Of a stretch of 25,480 nt of DNA, positions 7,717-21,078 are shown piece after piece (position 1 is the stretch's first letter; every line of letters starts with the position of its first letter). A program made the position numbers and the translations under genes. The notes beneath the pieces were generated by a model. The model was not told the DNA's origin, made no database searches, and worked only from the letters and a program-made list of their open reading frames with translations. The DNA lies in NCBI GenBank assembly GCA_964357345.1, contig CAYHKS010000002.1, positions 1 to 25,480 on the forward strand, given 5' to 3'. This DNA comes from an uncultured Candidatus Saccharibacteria bacterium. GTDB taxonomy: Bacteria > Patescibacteriota > Minisyncoccia > Phycocordibacterales > Zambryskibacteraceae.

Positions 7717-8349
7717 TTAGCTAAGATGAATTAGAATAGCCCGCGTTGGAGCGGCTTCGGAGCCAGCAATTTTCACAGGAAGACAGATAAGTTCATAAAC
7801 TCCAGATTTTACTCCAGTTAGATTTAAACTCTCTATAATACAAATACCCTTACCCAAAAGAATTTGGTGCACCTTAGCAGCTTCGTCAAATTTAGCAATC
7901 GAAAGATAATCCATTCCCACTAATTTTATCCCCTTCTTGGCAATCCACGATGCCCCGCTTTCGGTCAAACCAACATAATTTTTTTTAAATCTTTTTGTCT
8001 TCCCCCAAAGTGGAGAGTTGGATGTCCTGAATAAAATTCTCTTTACACCCTTCGGTATCGACAACTTTTCCAAATCTTTAACACCAATTTCCTTCACTTT
8101 TGGTAAGTATGCGACAAATACTGGGCCCATAAAAATATCTAGTGGTAACTTATCAATAGATTTACCTTTAGCTATAAAATGAAGCGGGGCGTCAATGTGA
8201 GTACCGATGTGAGCATTCATTTCTATATGCGTTTCATTCACCAAATTTTTCGAACCAATTTTCGATATACGCTTTATACAAAGCCCCGTGGAATTTGGCC
8301 ACAATGGTAAATTATTGCTAACTGGAACAGATATATCGATTATCTTCAT
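7717..8349 (-). CDS. Cyclase-family metal-dependent hydrolase (kynurenine formamidase/isatin hydrolase-like)
   Basis: Signature H-x-G-T-H-x-D-A-P-x-H (HIGTHIDAPLHF), plus VGMDYLSI, IIESLNL and LPVKI-x-G-x-E-A-A-P-x-RA. ATGA overlap with the upstream gene. Confidence 0.92.
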   Translation of the reverse strand: MKIIDISVPVSNNLPLWPNSTGLCIKRISKIGSKNLVNETHIEMNAHIGTHIDAPLHFIAKGKSIDKLPLDIFMGPVFVAYLPKVKEIGVKDLEKLSIPKGVKRILFRTSNSPLWGKTKRFKKNYVGLTESGASWIAKKGIKLVGMDYLSIAKFDEAAKVHQILLGKGICIIESLNLTGVKSGVYELICLPVKIAGSEAAPTRAILIHLS

Positions 8350-10193
8350 GGTTTCAGAAAAATCTTTAAATATTTCCCAGTTCTATGTAGTTCCCAGGCC
8401 TTTTTGAAGTCTTTGAGAGGCATAGCCGTCAGCATGGAATCTGGAATATCAATTTTTGGCAATAGCATCAAGGCCTGATGGAAATCTTGCGAATCTCCTC
8501 CCACAGAACCGGCAAAAACTTTTTCGTGCCCAACTAAATCTTCAAAATTGTAACTAATATCTCCGTAGGGAAAGCCGAGCAACATTATTGTGCAATCGGT
8601 ACGACTTTTTTTAACTACTTGCTCAAGAACCTCTTTGGACCCTGTTGCCTCGATAATTACATTAAATGATTCAAGATCAACGAGTGACGTAGAAATACTA
8701 CTAACCTTATCTTTCAAAAGCTTCAATCTATCGTTGCTCCTATCAAAAACACTAACCTTATAACCTTCAAGTGCAAGGACCTGTGAGCATAGGAAACCGA
8801 TTGGCCCAGCTCCTGTCACCGCAATTTTAGCTTGTGGAGTCAGCCTATTCCTTATTCTTCTTATGGCTCGTAGGATAACGGCTGTTGGCTCGGTTAGGGC
8901 GGCTTTCTTCGAGTCTAGATTGTCTGGTATGTGGTGGATAGCATCTCCGGGCATGACTATATATTTACTGTAAGCGCCATTAAAGTTAATAACTCCAACC
9001 TCTTTGCGATTAGAGCTATCGCGCGATAAGATACACTCCCCCACCACCTTTTGACCAACCTTGAAACGTTCACGAAATTTATTATTCGAACCGATTCTTA
9101 TTATTGTTGCGGAGAATTCATGCCCTGGAACAATCGGATATTTAGCCAACCCATCACGGTAATATCCTAAAGCTCCCTCAAGAATTTCTATATCCGTTCG
9201 ACACACGCCAACATAATCTACTTCAAGCATGATGTCTCCGGGCTTCATCTCTGGCAAGAGCACTTCCTCAAGTTCAGCCTTGTTCTTACCCTTGATAACT
9301 ACGGATTGGTTTTTTATCAACGATAAAATGCCAAGTCCCTCTCTGTTCAGATCTAGATTTCTATCTTTAAACCAACCCTGTCTACTCCCTTTCCATTGAT
9401 AATATCGAAAACGCAGTATCTCTTCGACTCTTTGCCAAGAGTAATTTGGGAAGGTGTGAAAAATATCGTCCGCCAAGCGAAGTGCGAGCCAAAAAACACT
9501 CAACCTAGTCTGAGGCGGATGCTTTAACCCAATTCTTACGGAAGCTATGGACTCTCGTCTGTAACGGTTGAAAACTTGATGCCACTCCTCTGTGTGGATG
9601 TGATATATAGTGGCTTTCGGTTCGTAATGAATAATATGCCCCATCTCGGCCATGTGTCGTGCCCAGTCAATGTCTTCGAGCCCAAAGAGATACTCATCAA
9701 AGTGATGACTCCTCCATAAATCCTTCCTGATGGCCGAATTTGCATTATTGGCATAATCAATAGCAGTCGTAGCATCTATTGGTTCCAAGCCGAATAGTCT
9801 ACGGAGATCCATCTTTTCTGAGAACTTCGATTGGCTTGCCCCCACCTGGCGTCCATATACCATGGCTACCTTCTCGTTTATGAAAGGTGCAATAAGATTG
9901 GAGAGCCATTTGTCGTTTACTGGCAGTACATGTGCTGAAGCGAAGACTAAATACTTACCCTTACTCTCCTCACATCCAATATTAAGAGCGTAACCAAATG
10001 TGAAGTCTCTACTCTCTATCTTTATAACCCTTACCTGGAACTCTTTTGCAATCTCGACTGTTCTATCGTTTGAGCTTGAGTCAACAATGATAACCTCATA
10101 GTCCTGATAATCTTGAGTCTTAAGAGCTCGCAGCAAGTTACCGAGATGCTTCTCTTCGTTAAGAGTCCTGATGATAATACTGGTCTCAGGCAT
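8346..10193 (-). CDS. Fusion of a GT2 glycosyltransferase (aa ~1-285) and a Zn-dependent MDR sugar/polyol dehydrogenase (aa ~294-615)
   Basis: GT2 part: SIIIRTLNEE, IIVDSSSNDRT, LEDIDW. MDR part: GVCRTD, PGHEFS, LTEP, GAGPIG. One uninterrupted frame. Confidence 0.9.
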   Translation of the reverse strand: MPETSIIIRTLNEEKHLGNLLRALKTQDYQDYEVIIVDSSSNDRTVEIAKEFQVRVIKIESRDFTFGYALNIGCEESKGKYLVFASAHVLPVNDKWLSNLIAPFINEKVAMVYGRQVGASQSKFSEKMDLRRLFGLEPIDATTAIDYANNANSAIRKDLWRSHHFDEYLFGLEDIDWARHMAEMGHIIHYEPKATIYHIHTEEWHQVFNRYRRESIASVRIGLKHPPQTRLSVFWLALRLADDIFHTFPNYSWQRVEEILRFRYYQWKGSRQGWFKDRNLDLNREGLGILSLIKNQSVVIKGKNKAELEEVLLPEMKPGDIMLEVDYVGVCRTDIEILEGALGYYRDGLAKYPIVPGHEFSATIIRIGSNNKFRERFKVGQKVVGECILSRDSSNRKEVGVINFNGAYSKYIVMPGDAIHHIPDNLDSKKAALTEPTAVILRAIRRIRNRLTPQAKIAVTGAGPIGFLCSQVLALEGYKVSVFDRSNDRLKLLKDKVSSISTSLVDLESFNVIIEATGSKEVLEQVVKKSRTDCTIMLLGFPYGDISYNFEDLVGHEKVFAGSVGGDSQDFHQALMLLPKIDIPDSMLTAMPLKDFKKAWELHRTGKYLKIFLKP

Positions 10194-10971
10194 AGTGTGC
10201 GATAAGATTATCCCCGGACATAAGCTCCTCTACTTTCTTGAGATCACTTAAAGTGTCCACAGCTTGAGTTTCAAAATATTCTGGGATCATCTTCACTTTG
10301 AAGCCGTATTCGAGTACCCGATTCATATCAATCGACTCAATAATTTCAAGTGGAGTTGGCTCAAGCTCATTGAACTTCAGAAGAAAGTCTCGAGTAAAAG
10401 GGATAACACAGACCTGTTTCCAAGTTGGCGGCATCGTGCCGTGCCACTTCTTACTTGAGGGAACGGGTTCACGAGAGAAGTACAAGGCATAGTTATTTTT
10501 ATCAGTAATCACCTTGGGACAATTTGGATCATTCCGTTCTTCAACAGTTGTAACCGGAGCCATCAAGTTTACCACTTTTATATCGGTATCTTCTAGAAGA
10601 GGTTCGACGGCCATATCTATCATTTCCGGTTTTATCATGGGTTCATCTCCCTGAATCATCACAATGATATCAACTCTTTTGCCTGTGGACTTCTCGATCT
10701 TCTTCAAGGCTTCGGCTGTTCTATCAGAAGCTCGTTCATGGGTGTTCATTGTCATTATCCATTTAGCTCCAATAGAATCAGCATATTTACCTATCTCTTC
10801 ATCACAAGTCGCTATATAGATTTCGTTCAAACTTTGACTCAACTTACTCCTGTGGTAAACATGTCCGATCATTGGCATACCTAAGATCTTTTCCAATGGC
10901 TTACCAGGGAATCTTGAGGATCCCATTCTAGCGGGAATAATGCCAACGATATTAAGATTATTTTTCTCCAT
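10186..10971 (-). CDS. kdsB: KdsB-family (CMP-Kdo synthetase-like) cytidylyltransferase, divergent substrate pocket
   Basis: IIPARMGSSRFPGKPL, QGDEP, ALYFSR-x-P-x-P and AVDT-x-x-DL. The symbol denotes family membership only; the substrate may not be Kdo. Confidence 0.88.
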   Translation of the reverse strand: MEKNNLNIVGIIPARMGSSRFPGKPLEKILGMPMIGHVYHRSKLSQSLNEIYIATCDEEIGKYADSIGAKWIMTMNTHERASDRTAEALKKIEKSTGKRVDIIVMIQGDEPMIKPEMIDMAVEPLLEDTDIKVVNLMAPVTTVEERNDPNCPKVITDKNNYALYFSREPVPSSKKWHGTMPPTWKQVCVIPFTRDFLLKFNELEPTPLEIIESIDMNRVLEYGFKVKMIPEYFETQAVDTLSDLKKVEELMSGDNLIAHYA

Positions 10972-11868: not shown

Positions 11869-13081
11869 ATATAGCAATGTGTTGAACTACTTTATCCTCC
11901 AGATTGAATTCTGATTTTACCCTTTCTTGCCCGGCTTTACCAAGCTTTGATGCCTGCTGGGGATTTTTTAATAAAGTAACAATTTTTTCTGCCATTTCCT
12001 TAGTCTTGAGGGGATTAACAACGTATCCAGTAATTCCATCCAAAATGAGTTCTCGGGCTCCTCCATAGGGAGTCCCCACTACTGGTTTTCCTGCTGCCAT
12101 AGCAGAGAGCACGGTTCTAGGGAAGGCATCAAAGCAGACAGAAGGAACCAACACAACATCAGAAGAAGCGTAGATGTATTTCATCTCAGCTCTTCCGATC
12201 CAACCAGCAAAAAGAAGTTTGTCCTCTATGCCCATTTTGCGGGCCTCGTCTTTCATCTTTTCTGAATATGCATCAGTTTTACCTGCAATCAAAAGTACCA
12301 ACTCTGGTATCTCTTTAGAAATTTTGTCTATAGTCTCTAGAACATATTTACCGCCCTTAGCTTCGCTTATTCGTCCACTAAACAAAACTACTTTTTTACC
12401 GACCAAGCCATGTTTAGCTCTAAACTGTTCGGCATCCTCATTTGAAACATGTCGTTCCGAGACGGATGAGCCTGTATACATAACTTCTACATTCTTGATA
12501 CCGTTTTGCTCAAGAGCAATTCTTAAGGCATTACTGACAGCAAGCAATTTATCTGCATACCCAAGATATTTCCTTATAATAAAATTCCTGAAGGGATTCC
12601 AACTCTTTTTAGCTTGTTTAAGATTATCCAACCAGGTGAGACGACAATCAAAATTTTCGAGATAACGCTTTGTGTTCAATTTCCCATAACTAAATGTCAT
12701 CGCATCACGAGCGGTAAACACAACTACTTTAGTATATTTCTTAGAGAGTTTGATGGAATGATATGACAAATAGAGATGCACATTGTTCACGTGTACTACA
12801 TCAGGTTTTAGTTTCTTAAGAATCTCCTCAAGTTTTTTGATTACAGGTCTGTTATACAAACTAATGTATGACCGCCATCTGGCAGGATAATCGCTTGCGA
12901 TTTTCCAAACCGTAAGCCCTTGATAATCCGACTGCCCCGCCTCTGCTTCCTCACGACAAGTTGTTACAACAAAGACTTCATGTCCTGCCTTTTTCATTCC
13001 CAGAGCCAGGTCACAGGTAGAAATTCCTGCTCCTCCGAAGCTCTGTGGCGGAAAATCATCGGCAAGAAACAAGATTTTCAT
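11852..13081 (-). CDS. GT4 family glycosyltransferase
   Basis: MKILF...FPPQSFGGA, GHEVFV, PDVVHVNN, FSGRISEAKG, and PSVCFDAFPRTVLSAMAAGKPVV (D/S replace the usual E-x7-E). Confidence 0.92.
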   Translation of the reverse strand: MKILFLADDFPPQSFGGAGISTCDLALGMKKAGHEVFVVTTCREEAEAGQSDYQGLTVWKIASDYPARWRSYISLYNRPVIKKLEEILKKLKPDVVHVNNVHLYLSYHSIKLSKKYTKVVVFTARDAMTFSYGKLNTKRYLENFDCRLTWLDNLKQAKKSWNPFRNFIIRKYLGYADKLLAVSNALRIALEQNGIKNVEVMYTGSSVSERHVSNEDAEQFRAKHGLVGKKVVLFSGRISEAKGGKYVLETIDKISKEIPELVLLIAGKTDAYSEKMKDEARKMGIEDKLLFAGWIGRAEMKYIYASSDVVLVPSVCFDAFPRTVLSAMAAGKPVVGTPYGGARELILDGITGYVVNPLKTKEMAEKIVTLLKNPQQASKLGKAGQERVKSEFNLEDKVVQHIAIYEKLS

Positions 13082-14820
13082 GGATTAAATTTATAGATTA
13101 TTATATTGCCAAATTCAGAAGCCTCGTCCAAATAATTAAAACGGTCTAGTTGCCAAGACGGATTGGTAGATTTATCCCAGACTAGATACTCAACTTCATA
13201 TTTTTTCCACATATCACGCAACCATTGAGCAGTAGGAAGAGAAAAAGTTTCTTCATACAAAGCAGTAAACTCATTTATCTTGTCATCAGGGATTGCTTCA
13301 TAGGAGCCGAGCTTCGGCTTGTAATACATGCCGTACATTATGGTGGATATTCTCACCCGCTCCTGATTGTGGAAGAGTTCACTAGCCTCCTCCTCGCCGA
13401 CTCCCTCTAACCTGTAGTATGTAAAGAGGGCATCTCTAACCCGTTCTTCTGATGCTGCAAGGGAGAGCGGTCCCTTAAAGTGATGGAAGACATTCAGAGG
13501 TGTGTAGATGACTGTTAAATCAGATCCCTTATCGTTTGCAAAAACTACCGCCTCTTTGGGCGCAAACTGAGTTAACCACTTCATAGCTGGCCCATATTTT
13601 TGCTCTCCAATTGAGGGGGTCAAGCCGTCATTATGATCATATCTATACGAAGCTAATTGGGTAAATATTGCTACATACAGACCTACAGCGATTATTGATG
13701 CTGTGAGTATTTTTTTGTAAGATTCTTTACCGAATCGACTTATCAAATTGAAAATTACCCAGATTACAAAAATGACGGCCATTGGCTTGTGGAAATACCA
13801 ATGATAATGCGCTGCTTGCATTTCCTTGCCAGTAATAACTTGCTGACTCATGGTTACAAAAGGTGCCAGGAGGAGCGCCAAACCAAAATAGTATTTTTCC
13901 CTATCCTCTTTTGAAAAACCTAGAAGAAAGACGAGGATGCCTACAATTACTACATACCCCACGAACAATGGGGCATGGGTTTCCACCACGCCAGCCCTCA
14001 TACTTGCCGCCTCATACACGGGGTGAAGCGTGGAATTATATAGGTTAATCATGTAAGGAACAGCAAGTAGCAAGGCTCCCAAAAAGACGTAGCCCAGCCT
14101 TGCCGCTTCTTGCCAGTTCCTTCTGATGATATAGACCAAAATTAAAATTCCCCCAAAAGCATATAAGTATGTCCAAGAATAAAAATAGTTATAAAAATTC
14201 AAACTCAAAAATACCGCGCTGAGAACTCCCCATTTCCAGCTTTTTTTGCGATAAAAAATCCAGAAAGATATCAGAAATAGAAAGACAGGAATATAGATCA
14301 TGGCGGGATTTACCGGACTTGCGAGTTCCAGAAAAGACTTTGGGCTTAACCCGCTAAAAAGCCTCTTTAACCCCCAAAAAGACAAAATTGGTCCAGCAAA
14401 AAGAATAGTCGCGGAACTAGAGAGAGCTATCAACCTGTTTTGAGACAATAAGTAAACAAAACCATAAAAGAGTAGAAAGACTATCGGCGAAAGCACAATA
14501 AATGAGAGCAAGATGGTGTTGCCTATATCAAGAGAGAAGATTGCGCCCATATACGCAACAATCATGGAACCGAACGGTTGAAATAAATAAGGGAGATCTT
14601 TGCCTTCTTTGTAATATATACTTCCCCAGTTGAGATGCCCATCCTGAACCTCCCGCACTCGCGGCACCCATGGAGAATTGTTCATTAATTCTACCCCTTG
14701 ATAAATCTCTTTTTGGTCGATACGAAAGTATATTGTCGGGAAGGCAGTAATTATAGATATAGCAATTGCTAAAATTATAGCTACTTTATGCTCTGACAAA
14801 ATCTGTTTAAATTTAGTCAT
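13078..14820 (-). CDS. Multi-pass membrane protein, putative GT-C (lipid-linked-donor) glycosyltransferase; paralog of 18323..19813
   Basis: N-terminal TM, a loop (RVREVQDGH), about 10 further hydrophobic segments and a soluble C-terminal domain (WLTQFAPKEAVVFAN). This is ArnT/GT-C-like topology. Located beside polyprenol-phosphate GT and GtrA genes. Confidence 0.55.
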   Translation of the reverse strand: MTKFKQILSEHKVAIILAIAISIITAFPTIYFRIDQKEIYQGVELMNNSPWVPRVREVQDGHLNWGSIYYKEGKDLPYLFQPFGSMIVAYMGAIFSLDIGNTILLSFIVLSPIVFLLFYGFVYLLSQNRLIALSSSATILFAGPILSFWGLKRLFSGLSPKSFLELASPVNPAMIYIPVFLFLISFWIFYRKKSWKWGVLSAVFLSLNFYNYFYSWTYLYAFGGILILVYIIRRNWQEAARLGYVFLGALLLAVPYMINLYNSTLHPVYEAASMRAGVVETHAPLFVGYVVIVGILVFLLGFSKEDREKYYFGLALLLAPFVTMSQQVITGKEMQAAHYHWYFHKPMAVIFVIWVIFNLISRFGKESYKKILTASIIAVGLYVAIFTQLASYRYDHNDGLTPSIGEQKYGPAMKWLTQFAPKEAVVFANDKGSDLTVIYTPLNVFHHFKGPLSLAASEERVRDALFTYYRLEGVGEEEASELFHNQERVRISTIMYGMYYKPKLGSYEAIPDDKINEFTALYEETFSLPTAQWLRDMWKKYEVEYLVWDKSTNPSWQLDRFNYLDEASEFGNIIIYKFNP

Positions 14821-16336
14821 TGAAAGAAAATGTGCGTTTTATAATATAGGCATTACCTTCTAATTTTTCTTCCAAAACTGGCGAGAGTCTGTTTCGGGCA
14901 AGCTCCGGAATCGGGGCATACTTGGAGCTCGGAACAGCGCTATAGGATGCTTTCACGCCGGAAATTATATCATCTTTAAGATCCACACCAAAAACAGTGT
15001 CGGTGACAATTACTTTGTGTGGACTATACTCAATTACCCGTTTGAACGGTACGGCTGAAACACCAGAGTAACTGATCATTTTGTGACGCAGCAAATCTTT
15101 GACGAACTTATATAGATATGGGATCCTGCCGAAAATAAATTGCCAAAGTTTGAAGACAATGGCTGTATGAGTTTTAAGAAGAGGCTCTTTTATCTTTTTT
15201 GCCGAACCTGAAGTTTTAAGGATTCCTGTCTGAAAAGATATTTCGTTAGCACTGTCTAGAATGCCTGTTGAGAATTTCTCCCCGCCAAAATTAATTTCTA
15301 GACCACTGTCAAAATAGACTTTTCCGCCAGAGTACAATCTGAATGATCCTCCCTTTTTCGCATTAGATACGAGATAATATTTTTTGTTCACCACTCTCAA
15401 AATAGAACTTTCATTAAAGAAACTCTCTCCGAGACTCACCTTAATCGGCTGCGGCGCAATCTCGATCCCAGTCTCAATCCAGTTATAAAGAATGTAGCAA
15501 AGGTAGCGATCATCAAGATGGGCTGGCCTAACTGCTCCCAAATACGCGAGCGATGTAGAGGGTATTATATATTCGGTATTTCTCGACATGTATTCCCCAC
15601 CAGCCGTATGATCTGGATTGATGAAAGTTTCTACAAATTTTTTTGCCTTACTGATAGCCGCATCTGCTTTAGTAGAGTGGGTAAGCTTCCGATACTTTTC
15701 CAAATAACTTATTGTCAAAGATAGATAGCCTATATCCGGACCCCCATATTCACTCCACCATCCTTCTTCATTCTGTTTCTCTAAAAATTCTTCAAGGAGA
15801 TGCCCGGTATCCTTGCCGGCAAGAGCTAGAGCAAAAATTGCTCCAGACACTTGGTTCATAACCGTGTTTTCCTTGATTTCCAAGAGAAAATCGGCTGCTT
15901 TTTTCAATACATTTCGTGTAAGTATTTCTTCTGCAAAGTTGATGTCGTTACTTTTCAACAGCAAGATGGTTTGCCCAATAGCAGATGTGAGAAAGGCAGT
16001 AGCTACATAAGAACCTTCATTTACATACCATTCATCGAATGACCCATTCGACCTTTGGAGATTTGCTGTAAAACATAGCGCAGCGCGTATCCATTCAAGA
16101 ATTTTCTCATCACGATAATATTCATTTCCTTCGAATTGGGAACAAAATAGAAGGGTCAGTGTATAGACCGCCTCTTGATAACGAGCACAACTAATGTCAT
16201 TAGTTCGATAATGCCAAAAAGCACGATCGAAAGACCCATAGGAAAGTGACGAAGGGTTTCGGTTGAGTTGTCCTAAAAGCCTCGGCATTTGCGCCAACGC
16301 TTCTCTAAGAAATTCGTTACTCGCTTTCTTCATCAA
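14813..16336 (-). CDS. Uncharacterised soluble protein with repeated helical G-x-F/W-x-E-W/Y motifs (alpha/alpha-barrel-like) and a beta-rich C-terminus
   Basis: 507 aa, no signal peptide. Repeats NGSFDEWY and EGWWSEYGGPDIGY follow amphipathic helices. Coupled to both neighbours by overlaps. The CDS is certain; the fold is inferred. Confidence 0.5.
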   Translation of the reverse strand: MMKKASNEFLREALAQMPRLLGQLNRNPSSLSYGSFDRAFWHYRTNDISCARYQEAVYTLTLLFCSQFEGNEYYRDEKILEWIRAALCFTANLQRSNGSFDEWYVNEGSYVATAFLTSAIGQTILLLKSNDINFAEEILTRNVLKKAADFLLEIKENTVMNQVSGAIFALALAGKDTGHLLEEFLEKQNEEGWWSEYGGPDIGYLSLTISYLEKYRKLTHSTKADAAISKAKKFVETFINPDHTAGGEYMSRNTEYIIPSTSLAYLGAVRPAHLDDRYLCYILYNWIETGIEIAPQPIKVSLGESFFNESSILRVVNKKYYLVSNAKKGGSFRLYSGGKVYFDSGLEINFGGEKFSTGILDSANEISFQTGILKTSGSAKKIKEPLLKTHTAIVFKLWQFIFGRIPYLYKFVKDLLRHKMISYSGVSAVPFKRVIEYSPHKVIVTDTVFGVDLKDDIISGVKASYSAVPSSKYAPIPELARNRLSPVLEEKLEGNAYIIKRTFSFND

Positions 16337-17276
16337 GATATTCTGCCTCTTTCCGAATAGTATAAATATTTTTCCCGTTATTTTGTCTGATTATGAGCTC
16401 ACCCAGAAAACCGGAGGAAAAAAGCTGGATACCGATGATTACAAGAAGGATGCCAAGCATGAGAAGTGGTCGACTACCAATTAACACGCCTTTGAAAAGT
16501 TTTTCGTAGCTAAGGTATACAAGAATGAGAAAACCAGCCAAAGAAGAGATAGTACCTATAATCCCAAAAAAATGCATTGGCCTGTCTATAAATCGCCGCA
16601 TAAGAATGAGTGTTATGAAATCAAAAAAACTTTTTGGAAGTCGGCGAAAATTTCCATATTTAGAAACGCCAAATTTTCTTTGTCTGTGATTAACAGATAT
16701 TTCAGAAATATTAAAACCTTGCGCCGCTGCAATTGACGGAATGTATCGATACATATCCCCATAAAGATTGAGACTTTTGGCTAACTCTCGAGTGTAAAGC
16801 TTATAGCCACAATTCATATCGTGAACAGATGTACCAGTGAAAATTCTTGTCAAACCATTTGCGAACTTAGAAACCATCCTTTTTGCAAAACTATCAAGGC
16901 GATGCTCCTTCCAGCCACACACTAAGTCAACCCTGTCCCTTCCCATTTTCTCAAGAAATCTAGGAATCTCATTCGGATCATCTTGCAAATCACCATCCAT
17001 AGTAAAGATATAATTCCCCAGAGCTAGATGAAAACCTGCCTGAAGAGCCTGAGATTTACCGAAGTTTCTAGAAAATTGAATGAGCTTCGCCGGTTTCAGT
17101 TTCGAAAGGACTTCAGATGTTTTATCTGTAGATCCATCATCAACAAAAATAATCTCAAAACTTTTACCAAGAGGATTAAGAACGTTTAATAGTTCAGAGT
17201 GAAGTTGACCTACAGATTCCGATTCGTTATAAACCGGAATAATTATTGATAGTTGGGGCCAAGGACCCTTAGTCAT
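16317..17276 (-). CDS. GT2 polyprenol-phosphate glycosyltransferase (GtrB/ArnC/YkoT-like) with two C-terminal TM helices
   Basis: IIIPVYNE, IIFVDDGSTD, FSRNFGKSQAL, TMDGDLQDDP, DMNCGYK, R-x-x-G-x-SKY and two C-terminal hydrophobic segments. Confidence 0.92.
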   Translation of the reverse strand: MTKGPWPQLSIIIPVYNESESVGQLHSELLNVLNPLGKSFEIIFVDDGSTDKTSEVLSKLKPAKLIQFSRNFGKSQALQAGFHLALGNYIFTMDGDLQDDPNEIPRFLEKMGRDRVDLVCGWKEHRLDSFAKRMVSKFANGLTRIFTGTSVHDMNCGYKLYTRELAKSLNLYGDMYRYIPSIAAAQGFNISEISVNHRQRKFGVSKYGNFRRLPKSFFDFITLILMRRFIDRPMHFFGIIGTISSLAGFLILVYLSYEKLFKGVLIGSRPLLMLGILLVIIGIQLFSSGFLGELIIRQNNGKNIYTIRKEAEYLDEESE

Positions 17277-17333
17277 GATGAGTAATTAAATCACAAATAA
17301 ACCCCGCTTACAAGAGAGATGCCACGAGAAGAC

Positions 17334-17576
17334 TTAAAGAACTTTAAAGTAGTCAAGAAGGAAATATCGCGTGATAAAAGTACTACCGATGACCACCGTA
17401 CTCGAAATAATAGTTGGAATACCAAAGATATCGATAAGGAGGTACAGAAGAGCGATATTAAGAACAGATATAAAAATACTTGTCCATGTATAGTGGACAA
17501 ATTTTTTATCGAGGAAGAGACGTCCAATCTTGTTACGCCTTAAACGTTCAATCAATTGCCCAAAAAAGACCTTCAT
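17334..17576 (-). CDS. Half-size GtrA-like membrane protein (2 TM)
   Basis: 80 aa. KFVHY...SVLNIALLYLLIDIFGI...SSTVV...RYFL matches one GtrA helical hairpin (compare RYVISGG...TNLLTLFVLVEYFHL in 19810..21078). Lies directly upstream of the GtrB-like gene. Confidence 0.65.
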   Translation of the reverse strand: MKVFFGQLIERLRRNKIGRLFLDKKFVHYTWTSIFISVLNIALLYLLIDIFGIPTIISSTVVIGSTFITRYFLLDYFKVL

Positions 17577-17599
17577 AGTATGTTAGATTACTATAACAT
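17577..17599. promoter_or_regulatory. Putative bidirectional extended -10 promoter in a 23-bp divergent gap
   Basis: Plus strand TG-T-TAGATT (17581-17589) and minus strand TG-T-TATAGT. These form the inverted repeat ATGTTA (17580-85) / TAACAT (17594-99). Confidence 0.45.
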
Positions 17600-18313
17600 A
17601 TGGACATTATCATCACCCCAACCTATAACGAACGGCAGAACATCCGTATCTTGGTCGACAAGTTATTCGCTCTCTATCCCACTATCCATATCTTAGTTGT
17701 AGATGACAATTCCCCTGATGGAACTGCCGAAGTTGTCAATGAACTACAAAAGAAACACCCTAATCTTCATCTCAAACAAAGATCTGGTAAACTCGGCCTT
17801 GCAAGTGCATATCTTGGTGCATTCAAAGATGTGCTGAAAGAATATCCTGAAGTCCGTTCTATCATAACTATGGACGCCGACCTTTCACATGACCCAGCCG
17901 TAGTTAGTCAGATGCTTAAAGAAATCAATAACTATGACCTAGTATTAGGCTCACGCTACATCAAAGGTGGTGGGGTAACGGACTGGGAATTATGGCGAAG
18001 AATACTTTCCCGTGGGGGCAACTTCTATGCGCGCCTTATAACGAGATCTTCGATTAAAGATTTAACTACTGGTTTTCATTGTTATAAAAAAAGCCTTTTG
18101 AATCGCTATGACATCGATGATATTAACGGACAAGGGTTCGCCTTCCTTATAGAAATGAAAATCATTGCTGAAAAATTTGGGGCGAAAATAAAGGAGATTC
18201 CCATCATTTTCCCAGGAAGGACCAACGGTCAATCTAAACTCAACAACAACATAATCTACGAGGGACTAATCATGCCGTGGAAAATATATTTTTCTTCAAA
18301 AAGAAAGGGTTGA
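17600..18313 (+). CDS. DPM1/Ppm1-like polyprenol-monophosphate sugar synthase (soluble GT2)
   Basis: IITPTYNERQNI, VVDDNSPDGT, R-x-GKLGLASAY, MDADLSHDP, GSRYIKGG, DLTTGF and R-x-x-G-x-SKL. No TM segment. Confidence 0.93.
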   Translation: MDIIITPTYNERQNIRILVDKLFALYPTIHILVVDDNSPDGTAEVVNELQKKHPNLHLKQRSGKLGLASAYLGAFKDVLKEYPEVRSIITMDADLSHDPAVVSQMLKEINNYDLVLGSRYIKGGGVTDWELWRRILSRGGNFYARLITRSSIKDLTTGFHCYKKSLLNRYDIDDINGQGFAFLIEMKIIAEKFGAKIKEIPIIFPGRTNGQSKLNNNIIYEGLIMPWKIYFSSKRKG

Positions 18314-18322
18314 TATCAAGTT

Positions 18323-19813
18323 CTATTTTGGAAGCTTATATATATTAAAACGTCCATCATCATATTCTGGTTTAACTCCACGCATAAATTTTGGTAAGAG
18401 CTCTGAATCCTTTGTTGAGTCCACAACAAAGTAGTCCAAACGCAAATTATTGAGATCTTCAATCGTTAAACTTCCCGGATTAAGAGAGAGAAGGCGTTTC
18501 ATCTCTAGTTCCTCTGAAGGAATATTGTGAAGCTGGGCTCCATGGAAAAAGAATGGGTAGTGTTTAGTCATAATTGAAACATATTCAGAAATAGACTGGT
18601 TCGCAAAAATCACTGACTCTTCTTTTACATTTTCATCAAGCCATTTAAGAGGTTGAGCATAACTTTGGACGAAGGCTACTTTATCCGTATCACGATTATC
18701 AAATTTGAAGAAACCGACTCCGCGCACAACATTTCTCCCCACTCCGATAAACATGATAATAATTAGTGTCGTAGCCGCAATCAAACGGAGCTTACTCAAA
18801 GAAAGTCTCGCAGAATACCACTCATATATCAAGAAACCAAAAATCATGAACATCCACAAAATAACAAACCGTCCGATATGAACAGCAAGTTGAAGCTCCA
18901 CACCAGTAATGACATTAAGACCTAGCCCGATTAGCAGTGCCACTCCGGTAGCAAACCAAAAGAGACTGTATTTTCGCAACACTATTAGTGTGGCCAAAGC
19001 CACGACAATCCATCTGCCATAATAGAATACTTCCACTGAGGGGATATGCGTATAAATGAGACCTATACGACTTAACGTCTCAAGATAGTATGGGCTCCCA
19101 ATCTGAAAAATAGTATAGATGCCAAAAGGGATAAGCATTAAGCCGGAATACACTGCCACCTTAAATAAAGCTCGTAGTTCTAAATAACGCTTCGTTGCTA
19201 GAAACCAAAAGAAAACGAGAACTAAGGATAAAAATACTATGTATGAGAGGTAGGTGTAGGCGTAAAAGGTCATGGCCGAAACAAAAGACAACCAGATTAT
19301 TTTTTTTCTTGCTGTCGGCTCTTTGAGAAACTCAATAAACACAATCAAAAACGTAAGGAATAGTGGATATATAAGTTGCATAATCGTGGGTCGCAATATA
19401 AATGAGTATGCTGTTATATATAAAACTACAGATTGCACAAACGCCCATTTCCTCTCAAACTTAAGTTGCTCAAATAATCTAAAAGCTAAAATGAGAAAAA
19501 CAAAACTCCAAATAAACATATTGAAAGCGATACTAATATCAAATGGTATGCCCAATATCAATGGCACCGCAGAAATTATATCCGGGATAAAGAAAGCGGG
19601 AGAATAAGTATTACGATATTCATAAGCATAAGGATTTCCTATAAGTAAATGTCCGTCCTTCACTTCTTTCATGCGAGTGTAGTAATACAAACTATCAGTC
19701 GTGCCCCTAGGTAGAACCCCTTGCCAAGCTTGTGGCCCGCCGGCTTTGTATATTACAAAAACACTAGGGATAACTGTTGCCACTAAGGCGATAAGTATGA
19801 AAAGTTTCTTCAT
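18323..19813 (-). CDS. Multi-pass membrane protein, putative GT-C glycosyltransferase; paralog of 13078..14820
   Basis: Acidic loop motif TDSLYY (GT-C-like D after TM1), RMKEVKDGH, many TM segments and a C-terminal WLDENVKEESVIFAN domain. Confidence 0.55.
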   Translation of the reverse strand: MKKLFILIALVATVIPSVFVIYKAGGPQAWQGVLPRGTTDSLYYYTRMKEVKDGHLLIGNPYAYEYRNTYSPAFFIPDIISAVPLILGIPFDISIAFNMFIWSFVFLILAFRLFEQLKFERKWAFVQSVVLYITAYSFILRPTIMQLIYPLFLTFLIVFIEFLKEPTARKKIIWLSFVSAMTFYAYTYLSYIVFLSLVLVFFWFLATKRYLELRALFKVAVYSGLMLIPFGIYTIFQIGSPYYLETLSRIGLIYTHIPSVEVFYYGRWIVVALATLIVLRKYSLFWFATGVALLIGLGLNVITGVELQLAVHIGRFVILWMFMIFGFLIYEWYSARLSLSKLRLIAATTLIIIMFIGVGRNVVRGVGFFKFDNRDTDKVAFVQSYAQPLKWLDENVKEESVIFANQSISEYVSIMTKHYPFFFHGAQLHNIPSEELEMKRLLSLNPGSLTIEDLNNLRLDYFVVDSTKDSELLPKFMRGVKPEYDDGRFNIYKLPK

Positions 19814-21078
19814 TGTTTTTTTGCAATGATAAAAAAATTGTCATGAAGATTAATGGGAATCTTTAACTTAGACAATCTTCCTTTGTTAGTAACACGTGCC
19901 AAATAATTCCATAGCGATAACCTCTGCCAGCGAAAAAGAGTTTGAAAAATATATGGAAGACTGAATCTCTTTCCTATATTGGTCGACATTATTGTAGTCA
20001 GACCAAGTCGAGTTAAAAGTTCTTTAAAATTACTACGATTAAACAAGATAAGATGCTCGGGTGGCACGACGAGTTGCCATTTAGAACCCCAAATACGCGC
20101 CCAAATACTTCCAGCATCAGGACTTGTTACAACAACAACCCCCCCGCCTTTCAATAATTTTCTAACTTCTGTAAGTACCGGCTTCGGATCTTTCAAATGT
20201 TCTACTACATCAAGGAGAGTAACAACATCAAAACTTTTTTCCGGAAAGCTTACGTTCTCTAAAGTGCCAGTTTTAATTGACAATCCCTTAGCACGGCCAA
20301 CCTCTGCTGCATATTCCGAAATCTCGATACCCTCTACTTCCCAACCATGATTTTTGGCAACCTCCATAAAAAACCCTGTCGCACAACCAATGTCCAGGAG
20401 CCTCCCCTTGCGCCCAATCACTCGCTCAATGTGCTTCAAATATAACTCGAAAGTCTCATGCATCGGCTCTTTGTCGCGATCATAGTTTGTGTAACCATGC
20501 TCATTGCCTCCAACAAAATAACTTTTGTCATATATCGAATTAGTACTCTCAGGAATCATGGATACAAAAACAGCATTGCAACCCTTGCACGAGACAAGTG
20601 TGTAACCATCTTTTTCTCCCCATTTTTTGCTTTTTACTGAGTCACATGAGGGGCATAGAGTATTTTCATAATTAATATCTGTACTAAAAACCATGTTCTT
20701 AAAGAGGAAGAAACTGTATACAGCAATGCCTCCGGCAATAATAATTTGTGATAATAGATAGTGAATATAAAAGACATCTACGAATATATACATAAACAGA
20801 GCATTGATTAAAAGGTTACAAATTTGGATTACAAAATAGATACCACTCTGTTTTTTAGTTTTACCTTTCGAGTAATCAGTAAATGTAAAGAACTTCTGCA
20901 TCGTAAAGCTCACCCCAAACGCAAAGAAAAATGCAAGTACAGTGGCAAAAAGATACCAGAGATGAAAGTACTCTACCAGAACAAAAAGCGTAAGAAGATT
21001 TGTGACTGCTCCCAGCCCTCCGGAAATCACATACCGCAAGGGCTGCCATTTTGTAAGATTGTTAATGAGAGCTTTCAT
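19810..21078 (-). CDS. Fusion of a GtrA-like domain (aa ~1-132) and a Zn-ribbon class I SAM methyltransferase
   Basis: Four-TM GtrA (RYVISGG...SFTMQKFFTF...KQSGIYF), then CPSC...CKGC, LLDIGCATGFF, GIEIS and FDVVTLLDVVEHL. Confidence 0.9.
   Translation of the reverse strand: MKALINNLTKWQPLRYVISGGLGAVTNLLTLFVLVEYFHLWYLFATVLAFFFAFGVSFTMQKFFTFTDYSKGKTKKQSGIYFVIQICNLLINALFMYIFVDVFYIHYLLSQIIIAGGIAVYSFFLFKNMVFSTDINYENTLCPSCDSVKSKKWGEKDGYTLVSCKGCNAVFVSMIPESTNSIYDKSYFVGGNEHGYTNYDRDKEPMHETFELYLKHIERVIGRKGRLLDIGCATGFFMEVAKNHGWEVEGIEISEYAAEVGRAKGLSIKTGTLENVSFPEKSFDVVTLLDVVEHLKDPKPVLTEVRKLLKGGGVVVVTSPDAGSIWARIWGSKWQLVVPPEHLILFNRSNFKELLTRLGLTTIMSTNIGKRFSLPYIFQTLFRWQRLSLWNYLARVTNKGRLSKLKIPINLHDNFFIIAKKQ

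Follow-up and report, generated by a model that had tools for sequence, protein, structure and literature searches.

The window analyzed here is an entire 25.5-kb contig (25,480 nt; CAYHKS010000002.1) from the 540-kb genome, about 92% complete, of an uncultured member of Patescibacteria (assembly GCA_964357345.1). It is filled with glycan-synthesis genes, nearly all of them on the minus strand, and seven open reading frames (ORFs) in its right half, all found where the initial annotation had placed them, make up two sets, A and B (Table 1). Each set combines a glycosyltransferase of family 2 (GT2), a GtrA-family module and a polytopic membrane protein (GT-C_A or GT-C_B) with one more enzyme, that is, a soluble protein predicted to contain an alpha/alpha toroid (below, the toroid protein) in set A and a methyltransferase fused to GtrA in set B. 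We propose that these genes constitute two complete systems for multi-component transmembrane glycosylation, of the GtrABC / CsbB-GtcA-YfhO / Arn type, and estimate the probability of this mechanism as a whole at roughly 0.6.

Table 1. Genes of the two glycosylation sets and of a neighboring cassette in the 25,480-nt window.
Gene	Set	Coordinates	Strand	Product
GT-C_A	A	13078..14820	-	580 aa, polytopic; putative extracytoplasmic transferase; GT-C_B paralog
Toroid protein	A	14813..16336	-	507 aa, soluble, alpha/alpha toroid + beta-sandwich; putative tailoring enzyme
ArnC/GtrB-like GT2	A	16317..17276	-	319 aa, two C-terminal transmembrane helices; putative polyprenyl-phosphate sugar synthase
Half-size GtrA	A	17334..17576	-	80 aa, one hairpin, basic N-terminus
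DPM1/DPMS-like GT2	B	17600..18313	+	237 aa, soluble, inverted gene; putative polyprenyl-phosphate sugar synthase
GT-C_B	B	18323..19813	-	496 aa, putative GT-C-fold membrane transferase
GtrA-methyltransferase	B	19810..21078	-	422 aa, fusion of GtrA (four transmembrane helices), Zn ribbon and class I SAM methyltransferase
GT2-dehydrogenase		8346-10193		615 aa, fusion of GT2 and zinc-type alcohol dehydrogenase; adjoins CMP-sugar cytidylyltransferase

Neither of the two polytopic proteins matches any Pfam or NCBIfam family, profiles of the named GT-C families (PMT_2, YfhO, STT3, ArnT-like) yield no above-threshold match to either of them, and the profile of the family has no match among PDB sequences; a PMT_2 match is seen in just one of 48 family members, and it is weak (E 0.014). 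As the initial annotation had suggested, the two proteins are paralogs, being 25% identical over 472 alignment columns (BLASTP, E 5e-13). This relationship is based on pairwise BLAST, since the hhalign comparison of profiles A3 and A1 is partly circular (A1 includes P0001). The AF2 model of GT-C_B, built from an alignment of 48 homologs, has pLDDT of 92.9 and pTM of 0.92, and all of its top 25 significant Foldseek matches in PDB are GT-C enzymes (STT3, AftA, PglB, AglB, DPY19, ArnT), the E-values being 3e-7 for STT3, 2e-6 for AftA and 2e-4 for ArnT. The VIA Z-scores are 17.6 for AftA (449 residues aligned), 17.2 for STT3A, 17.0 for Pmt4 and 16.8 for ArnT, with model residues 1–496 spanned, and Swiss-Prot models also give GT-C matches. 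The GT-C fold, initially postulated for the polytopic proteins, is thus present in the model, and GT-C_B, as modeled, belongs to the GT-C superfamily, having a polytopic fold, a conserved N-terminal transmembrane module and a long first extracytoplasmic loop.

The strongest conservation in the family is observed in the loop following the first transmembrane helix, which is extracytoplasmic by the positive-inside rule and carries an R-x-x-E-V-x-D-G-H motif common to both paralog families. In this loop of GT-C_B, residues E50, D53, E65 and D78 are invariant or nearly invariant, E50 and D53 corresponding to E57 and D60 of GT-C_A; in GT-C enzymes, the catalytic acids are located in the first extracytoplasmic loop. 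The family comprises 2112 cluster representatives at E ≤1e-3 and 602 at E ≤1e-30 in a library clustered at 50% identity. Its distribution is patchy (five of 301 genomes sampled within the phylum), all 211 homologs of GT-C_A come from Patescibacteria-type sources, and the species-representative genomes yielded 26 loci, every one of them in a metagenome-assembled genome (MAG) of the Patescibacteria group.

As STT3, AglB and PglB are among the best structural matches, and the window also encodes a Wzx flippase and a Wzy_C/O-antigen-ligase-like protein, one could suppose that the polytopic proteins are oligosaccharyltransferases or polymerases of the STT3/PglB/AglB kind, using glycans linked to undecaprenyl diphosphate (Und-PP). 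We consider this very improbable: AftA, ArnT, PMT and DPY19, all of them users of polyprenyl-phosphate-linked monosaccharides, match equally well; repeated fusion to, or adjacency with, DPMS-like GT2s and GtrA (see below) indicates monophosphate-linked monosaccharide donors; and the two GT-C genes match the two GT2s one to one. Genome-wide, all three GT2 domains (including that of the GT2-dehydrogenase fusion), both GtrA domains and both GT-C genes of the new family are inside the window, and no PMT_2-type GT-C was detected across the assembly. With these numbers matching within one window, one GT2 per GT-C in each set is the simplest reading.

Both GT2s of the sets contain the PF00535 domain (1e-32 for the 319-aa protein of set A, 5e-29 for the 237-aa protein of set B). 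The closest solved relatives of the former are ArnC structures (full-length match, 1e-43 over residues 5–297), followed by GtrB sll0501 (1e-29), and its transmembrane helices are at 237–255 and 271–289. The best solved relative of the latter is the dolichyl-phosphate mannose (Dol-P-Man) synthase (DPMS) of Pyrococcus furiosus, of which only the catalytic domain is matched (2.9e-34, residues 27–241 of 374), and the NCBIfam PpgS model covers the full length of this GT2 with a score below the cut-off. Given the similarity to the GT-A domain and the membrane anchoring, either their own or that of a partner, both proteins are, as judged by sequence, probable polyprenyl-phosphate GT2s of the ArnC/GtrB/DPMS type. 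Since neither reaches an NCBIfam equivalog cut-off, the family match leaves their sugar specificity undefined.

The 80-aa protein of set A matches PF04138 slightly above the cut-off (26.3 vs. 26.1 bits) and in profile positions 62–114 only, that is, in the second GtrA hairpin and not the first, and can be called a half-size GtrA, the name used in the initial annotation; it aligns with transmembrane helices 3 and 4 of the full GtrA domain (E 3e-4). The protein encoded at the other end of the locus is a full member of the GtrA family (PF04138, 64.8 bits, profile positions 1–117, four transmembrane helices) and continues into a CxxC..CxxC ribbon and a methyltransferase domain (Methyltransf_23, 89.7 bits, 2e-25; Methyltransf_11, 1e-18), so that the two-domain architecture assigned to it earlier holds. 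By profile, the latter domain appears to be a class I methyltransferase dependent on S-adenosylmethionine (SAM), the profile hits leaving the substrate class undefined, and by the positive-inside rule it is cytoplasmic. The same GtrA-methyltransferase fusion is found in a 58%-identical relative (locus L002), with a 4-residue indel at the junction, and hence an assembly or sequencing artifact is unlikely; the protein may have arisen by an evolutionary gene fusion.

Rather than flipping the lipid-linked sugar, the GtrA modules could be subunits anchoring or activating the GT2s, similar to the transmembrane domain of archaeal DPMS, to Rv3632 with PpgS, and to GacJ with GacI, while flipping would be performed by something else or by the GT-C protein itself. 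The GT2 of set B corresponds to the catalytic domain of DPMS minus its GtrA-like transmembrane domain, PF04138 being defined as the GtrA/DPMS transmembrane domain; as set B resembles a split DPMS, GtrA modules may well be anchors or activators of GT2s, instead of, or besides, being flippases. Moreover, the half-size GtrA is always encoded directly upstream of the ArnC-like GT2 (as a 67–84-aa gene in loci L002, L004, L006, L007, L028, L034–L036 and on the P0009 contig), loci of the toroid family often have an LPG_synthase_TM flippase-like gene in place of GtrA, and pairs of a GT2 and a small membrane protein have been described (PMC8035078). On the other side, GtrA::GT-C fusions, described below, connect GtrA equally to synthesis and to transfer, and the ArnC-like GT2 already has two transmembrane helices of its own. 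We therefore regard a purely anchoring role as a serious but not the favored possibility. Prediction of a complex of the ArnC-like GT2 with the half-size GtrA gave a score of 0.00 in a run without controls and has no weight either way.

The gene composition of set B was compared in the 26 Patescibacteria genome loci holding GT-C_B relatives. Orthologs of the DPMS-like GT2 (≥190 bits) are present in 17 of them, orthologs of the Zn-ribbon methyltransferase (≥250 bits) are found directly upstream of the GT-C_B relative in nine, and a four-helix GtrA, in ten. For set A, the gene order half-GtrA / ArnC-like GT2 / X / GT-C_A / GT4 is observed in the closer relatives (L002, L004, L006, L007, L028, L035). 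Here, X is a methyltransferase of 204–247 aa in L002 (13249–13992), L004 (14422–15162), L006 (12645–13535) and L007 (7433–8047). In L028 and L035, X is the toroid protein, accompanied or not by a 444-aa protein of the nitroreductase family; the first three genes in the same order, with the toroid protein as X, are also present in L034 and L036. This pattern suggests that the position between the ArnC-like GT2 and GT-C_A is an exchangeable tailoring slot.

Natural fusions form a further line of evidence. Out of the top 150 representatives of the GT-C family, 11 are longer than 720 aa, and the ten scanned comprise six GtrA::GT-C, three GT2::GT-C and one methyltransferase::GT-C fusions; further examples are P0009 (GtrA::GT-C) and P0076 (GT2::GT-C). 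The methyltransferase fused to GT-C in P0356 is 39% identical to the methyltransferase domain from the window (E 6e-61). As far as sequence comparison can tell, the fusions of GT-C relatives to GtrA, to GT2 and to this same methyltransferase tie set B together, and, given the fusions and the position directly upstream of GT-C, the methyltransferase genuinely belongs to the set. The triplets proposed in the initial annotation therefore recur in other Patescibacteria, both as neighboring genes and as fused ones. In addition, locus L001 encodes a 797-aa GT2::GT-C fusion (8001–10394) together with a separate ArnC-like GT2, a YdjC-like deacetylase, methyltransferases and a PMT_2 GT-C, and hence several lipid-carrier glycosylation modules are found within one Patescibacteria genome.

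The toroid protein has no Pfam match, PF25840 being present in some of its homologs, and no signal peptide or transmembrane segment is predicted for it. Its AF2 model (pLDDT 91.6) consists of an alpha/alpha toroid (residues 1–296) and a beta-sandwich (300–506). The whole-length fold matches are Formosa ulvan lyase (E 1e-11, TM-score 0.56), polysaccharide lyases (PL) of families PL33, PL8, PL12, PL15 and PL17, and dermatan-sulfate (DS) epimerase; the Z-scores are 15.4 for the glycosaminoglycan lyase 8khw (399 residues aligned) and 14.2 for DS-epimerase 1 (410 residues aligned). The model thus has the two-domain fold of the polysaccharide lyase / uronyl C5-epimerase class (PL8, PL12, PL15, PL17, PL33, PL40, DS-epimerase), while the toroid domain taken alone is equally near class II terpene cyclases (Z 17.3) and cellobiose 2-epimerases (Z 16.2). 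Comparison of the family profile with PDB sequences yields only the thioester domain of complement C4 (2e-4), supporting the alpha/alpha toroid and nothing beyond. The residues R251, N252, Y255, R276 and Y277 are invariant in the family.

The best whole-length fold matches would fit a true polysaccharide lyase or hydrolase, trimming or releasing the polymer in the manner of AlgL in alginate export. Still, sequence identity to the lyases is only 9–14%, neither a signal peptide nor a membrane segment is predicted for the protein, its gene is translationally coupled to that of a GT2 acting at the cytoplasmic face, and in very different loci the family is found together with ArnC-like GT2 and nitroreductase genes, making such a function highly unlikely.

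To count this linkage, neighbors within 3 kb of the toroid gene were considered in 34 metagenome loci, all of them flanked by at least 2.5 kb on either side. An ArnC-like GT2 gene is present in 27 of the 34 loci, a nitroreductase-family gene in 19, and either of them in 30. The GT-C gene downstream belongs either to the new family or to PMT_2, and the flippase-like gene is either a half-GtrA or LPG_synthase_TM. As the association with the ArnC-like GT2 is seen whichever GT-C and flippase types are present, the toroid protein seems to be tied to the donor-making GT2 and not to a particular transferase or glycan. The triad of the toroid protein, the ArnC-like GT2 and the nitroreductase-family protein, often accompanied by LPG_synthase_TM and PMT_2 GT-C, recurs in loci L028–L113 (e.g., L029:5424–11332 and L030:6004–10663). 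Relatives of the toroid protein were found in at least 501 metagenome stretches, including one MAG labeled Heimdallarchaeota, and the association with the ArnC-like GT2 and, usually, the nitroreductase is widespread in uncultured bacteria and archaeal-labeled MAGs; no description of this cassette was found in the literature. In two loci (L040:5986–7630 and L080:5252–6900), the toroid homologs are split into two ORFs, which could be due to a frameshift or a sequencing error.

The minus-strand genes of the two sets are linked through overlaps of 4–20 nt, and the toroid gene overlaps its neighbors on both sides; for this gene, the ATG at 16333 is a more likely start than the annotated one. The only inverted gene of the two sets, that of the DPMS-like GT2, is separated by a 23-bp divergent gap (17577–17599) from the start of the half-size GtrA gene and by a 9-bp convergent gap (18314–18322) from the stop of GT-C_B. 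With gaps this short, both its promoter and the promoter restarting minus-strand transcription must sit within coding sequence. A scan for promoters and terminators around the inverted gene yielded sites no more frequent than in shuffled sequence. A hairpin with a 9-bp stem, followed by T-runs on both strands, is observed in the coding region of the half-size GtrA (17478–17502). The inverted orientation is retained in loci L002, L004, L006, L007 and L008, and the gene is co-directional in more distant loci.

Considering the families, the fold, the synteny and the fusions together, we find it highly probable that two polyprenyl-phosphate-sugar/GT-C systems are present in the window. In the scheme that follows, the families, folds, paralogy, topology, gene neighborhoods and natural fusions are those described above; what donor lipid, sugars and acceptors are used, what does the flipping and when the accessory enzymes act are proposals. 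In set A, the ArnC-like GT2, possibly helped by the one-hairpin GtrA, would use a nucleotide sugar to glycosylate polyprenyl phosphate at the cytoplasmic face; the soluble toroid protein, translationally coupled to the GT2, would act on the lipid-linked sugar or its immediate precursor; and after flipping, GT-C_A would attach the sugar to an extracytoplasmic acceptor. In set B, the soluble DPMS-like GT2 would work at the membrane with the four-helix GtrA domain, as a split archaeal Dol-P-Man synthase; the methyltransferase tethered to GtrA would methylate the polyprenyl-phosphate-linked sugar using cytoplasmic SAM; and once the product is flipped, GT-C_B would transfer the methylated sugar outside. 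The methyltransferase is cytoplasmic, and the GT-C protein to which it is fused or adjoined has an active site predicted to face outward, so that the lipid-linked donor is the only molecule that both can reach; on these grounds, we slightly favor action of the methyltransferase on the lipid-linked sugar. For action of the toroid protein on the product or the donor of the ArnC-like GT2, we see about even chances.

The main competing explanation retains the same core scheme and assigns nucleotide sugars, or an Und-PP-oligosaccharide built by the neighboring GT4 and GT9 enzymes, as substrates to the methyltransferase and the toroid protein, the GtrA fusion merely holding the methyltransferase at the membrane. 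The methyltransferase could indeed use such substrates: it is of the generic Methyltransf_23/11 type with solved relatives of mixed functions, the locus encodes at least four methyltransferase domains besides the set B fusion as well as several Leloir glycosyltransferases, and cytoplasmic methylation of Und-PP-linked polymers is established elsewhere, by WbdD and by AglP in Haloferax. Its family, however, accompanies GT-C genes (as counted above, and as seen in the P0356 fusion) and not Leloir glycosyltransferases, and the toroid family accompanies ArnC-like GT2 genes whatever else the locus holds. We therefore consider this alternative as the less probable one, though one deserving attention.

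Several other points weigh against the two-system scheme with lipid-linked tailoring. GT-C_A is only provisionally a GT-C protein, by homology to the modeled GT-C_B, and the catalytic Asp is assigned tentatively, by position. To our knowledge, GtrA proteins have never been directly shown to be flippases. The slot of the toroid protein is filled by a methyltransferase in the closest genome relatives; its fold, being common to lyases, epimerases, hydrolases and terpene cyclases, does not name a reaction; and no nitroreductase, its usual partner, was found in the genome assembly. Neither was a UDP-glucose/GDP-mannose dehydrogenase found in the assembly, which lowers the chances of a uronic-acid substrate and of C5-epimerization. 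The initial annotation had suggested that in each set a monosaccharide is modified while lipid-linked, one being methylated and the other possibly epimerized. The general idea is strengthened by the methyltransferase in set B and the conservation of the toroid protein beside the ArnC-like GT2, and remains a proposal, whereas epimerization, being a fold analogy weakened by the missing UDP-sugar dehydrogenase, loses ground, and we regard the toroid protein as unlikely to be specifically a C5-epimerase.

The core scheme itself is already known from GtrABC/Arn-like systems of three components. The O-antigen glucosylation systems GtrA-GtrB-Gtr(type) of Shigella and Salmonella likewise combine a GT2 making undecaprenyl-phosphate-linked sugar, a small GtrA-family protein and a polytopic GT-C acting outside, and the GT2 of set A has the GtrB/ArnC architecture. 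Here, in contrast, the GT-C proteins belong to no named family, GtrA occurs as a half-size protein or as a fusion with a methyltransferase, both sets include one more enzyme, and the genes reside in a Patescibacteria genome and not in a phage-borne enterobacterial cassette. Precedents for several GT-A/GT-C pairs in one monoderm-type organism are provided by Gram-positive bacteria (CsbB-GtcA-YfhO; CsdAB/CD/EF with CflA of L. lactis; GacI-GacJ-GacL), where a soluble or anchored GT2 acts with a small membrane helper and the targets are cell-wall polymers (PMC8035078). Unlike those, the GT-C proteins of the window are neither YfhO nor PMT_2 by sequence, and the description of those systems includes neither an accessory methyltransferase nor a toroid enzyme (the string "methyl" occurs 0 times in PMC8035078).

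In the Arn pathway (ArnC, ArnD, ArnE/F, ArnT), ArnD deformylates the lipid-linked sugar before flipping, and modification at this stage is the logic proposed here for both sets; moreover, no solved structure is closer to the set A GT2 than that of ArnC, and ArnT is among the strong fold matches of GT-C_B. The window differs in lacking both an ArnD-like deformylase and ArnE/F and in having, as candidates for tailoring, a methyltransferase and a protein of lyase/epimerase fold; the acceptor, too, is other than lipid A. The mycobacterial GalN system PpgS (Rv3631)-Rv3632-Rv3779 resembles set B in having a soluble GT2 of about 240 aa and a GtrA-family membrane protein, and archaeal DPMS (PDB 5mlz) has the same two modules, fused in the Pyrococcus enzyme and split here. 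Set B differs from both in that its GtrA module also bears the methyltransferase and its GT-C is of another family. Finally, the three-component pentofuranose system of Citrobacter youngae consists of PPPRS, a MATE flippase, a GT136 GT-C and an auxiliary epimerase (PMC11127046). It shares with the proposed scheme extracytoplasmic post-polymerization glycosylation from a polyprenyl-phosphate-linked sugar, and an auxiliary enzyme changing the identity of the lipid-linked sugar, but its donor synthase is a phosphoribosyltransferase and not a GT2, its flippase is of the MATE type, and its epimerase has a different fold.

The rest of the window encodes the Wzx flippase, the O-antigen-ligase-like Wzy_C/ligase-TPR protein, a CMP-sugar cassette, GT4 and GT9 glycosyltransferases and several methyltransferases. 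The GT2-dehydrogenase fusion listed in Table 1 is a part of the neighboring cassette; the pair formed by this fusion and the CMP-sugar cytidylyltransferase is also observed on the P0009 contig.

The new elements described here are the GT-C family, the GtrA variants (halved or fused to a methyltransferase), the methyltransferase as an integral part of such a system, and the toroid protein, with or without the nitroreductase, as a partner of the ArnC-like GT2; we found no description of Patescibacteria GT-C systems or of these components in the literature. Patescibacteria are host-attached bacteria with tiny genomes, and very little is known about the chemistry of their surface. In this genome, a single contig carries what appears to be the entire capacity for polyprenol-linked glycosylation. 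The sizeable unnamed GT-C family is now defined, with its partners identified via natural fusions. The methyltransferase and the toroid protein are two concrete candidates for enzymes editing a sugar on its lipid carrier, and we know of few such reactions, namely those of ArnD, of DprE1/E2 and of the C. youngae epimerase. As a tentative generalization, held with less than even confidence, two undescribed families may modify polyprenyl-phosphate monosaccharides at the cytoplasmic face before flipping: the Zn-ribbon methyltransferase, which would produce a methylated donor, and the toroid protein which, in a triad with the ArnC-like GT2 and usually the nitroreductase, would produce a chemically altered donor for several GT-C families. 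This triad extends well beyond the phylum.

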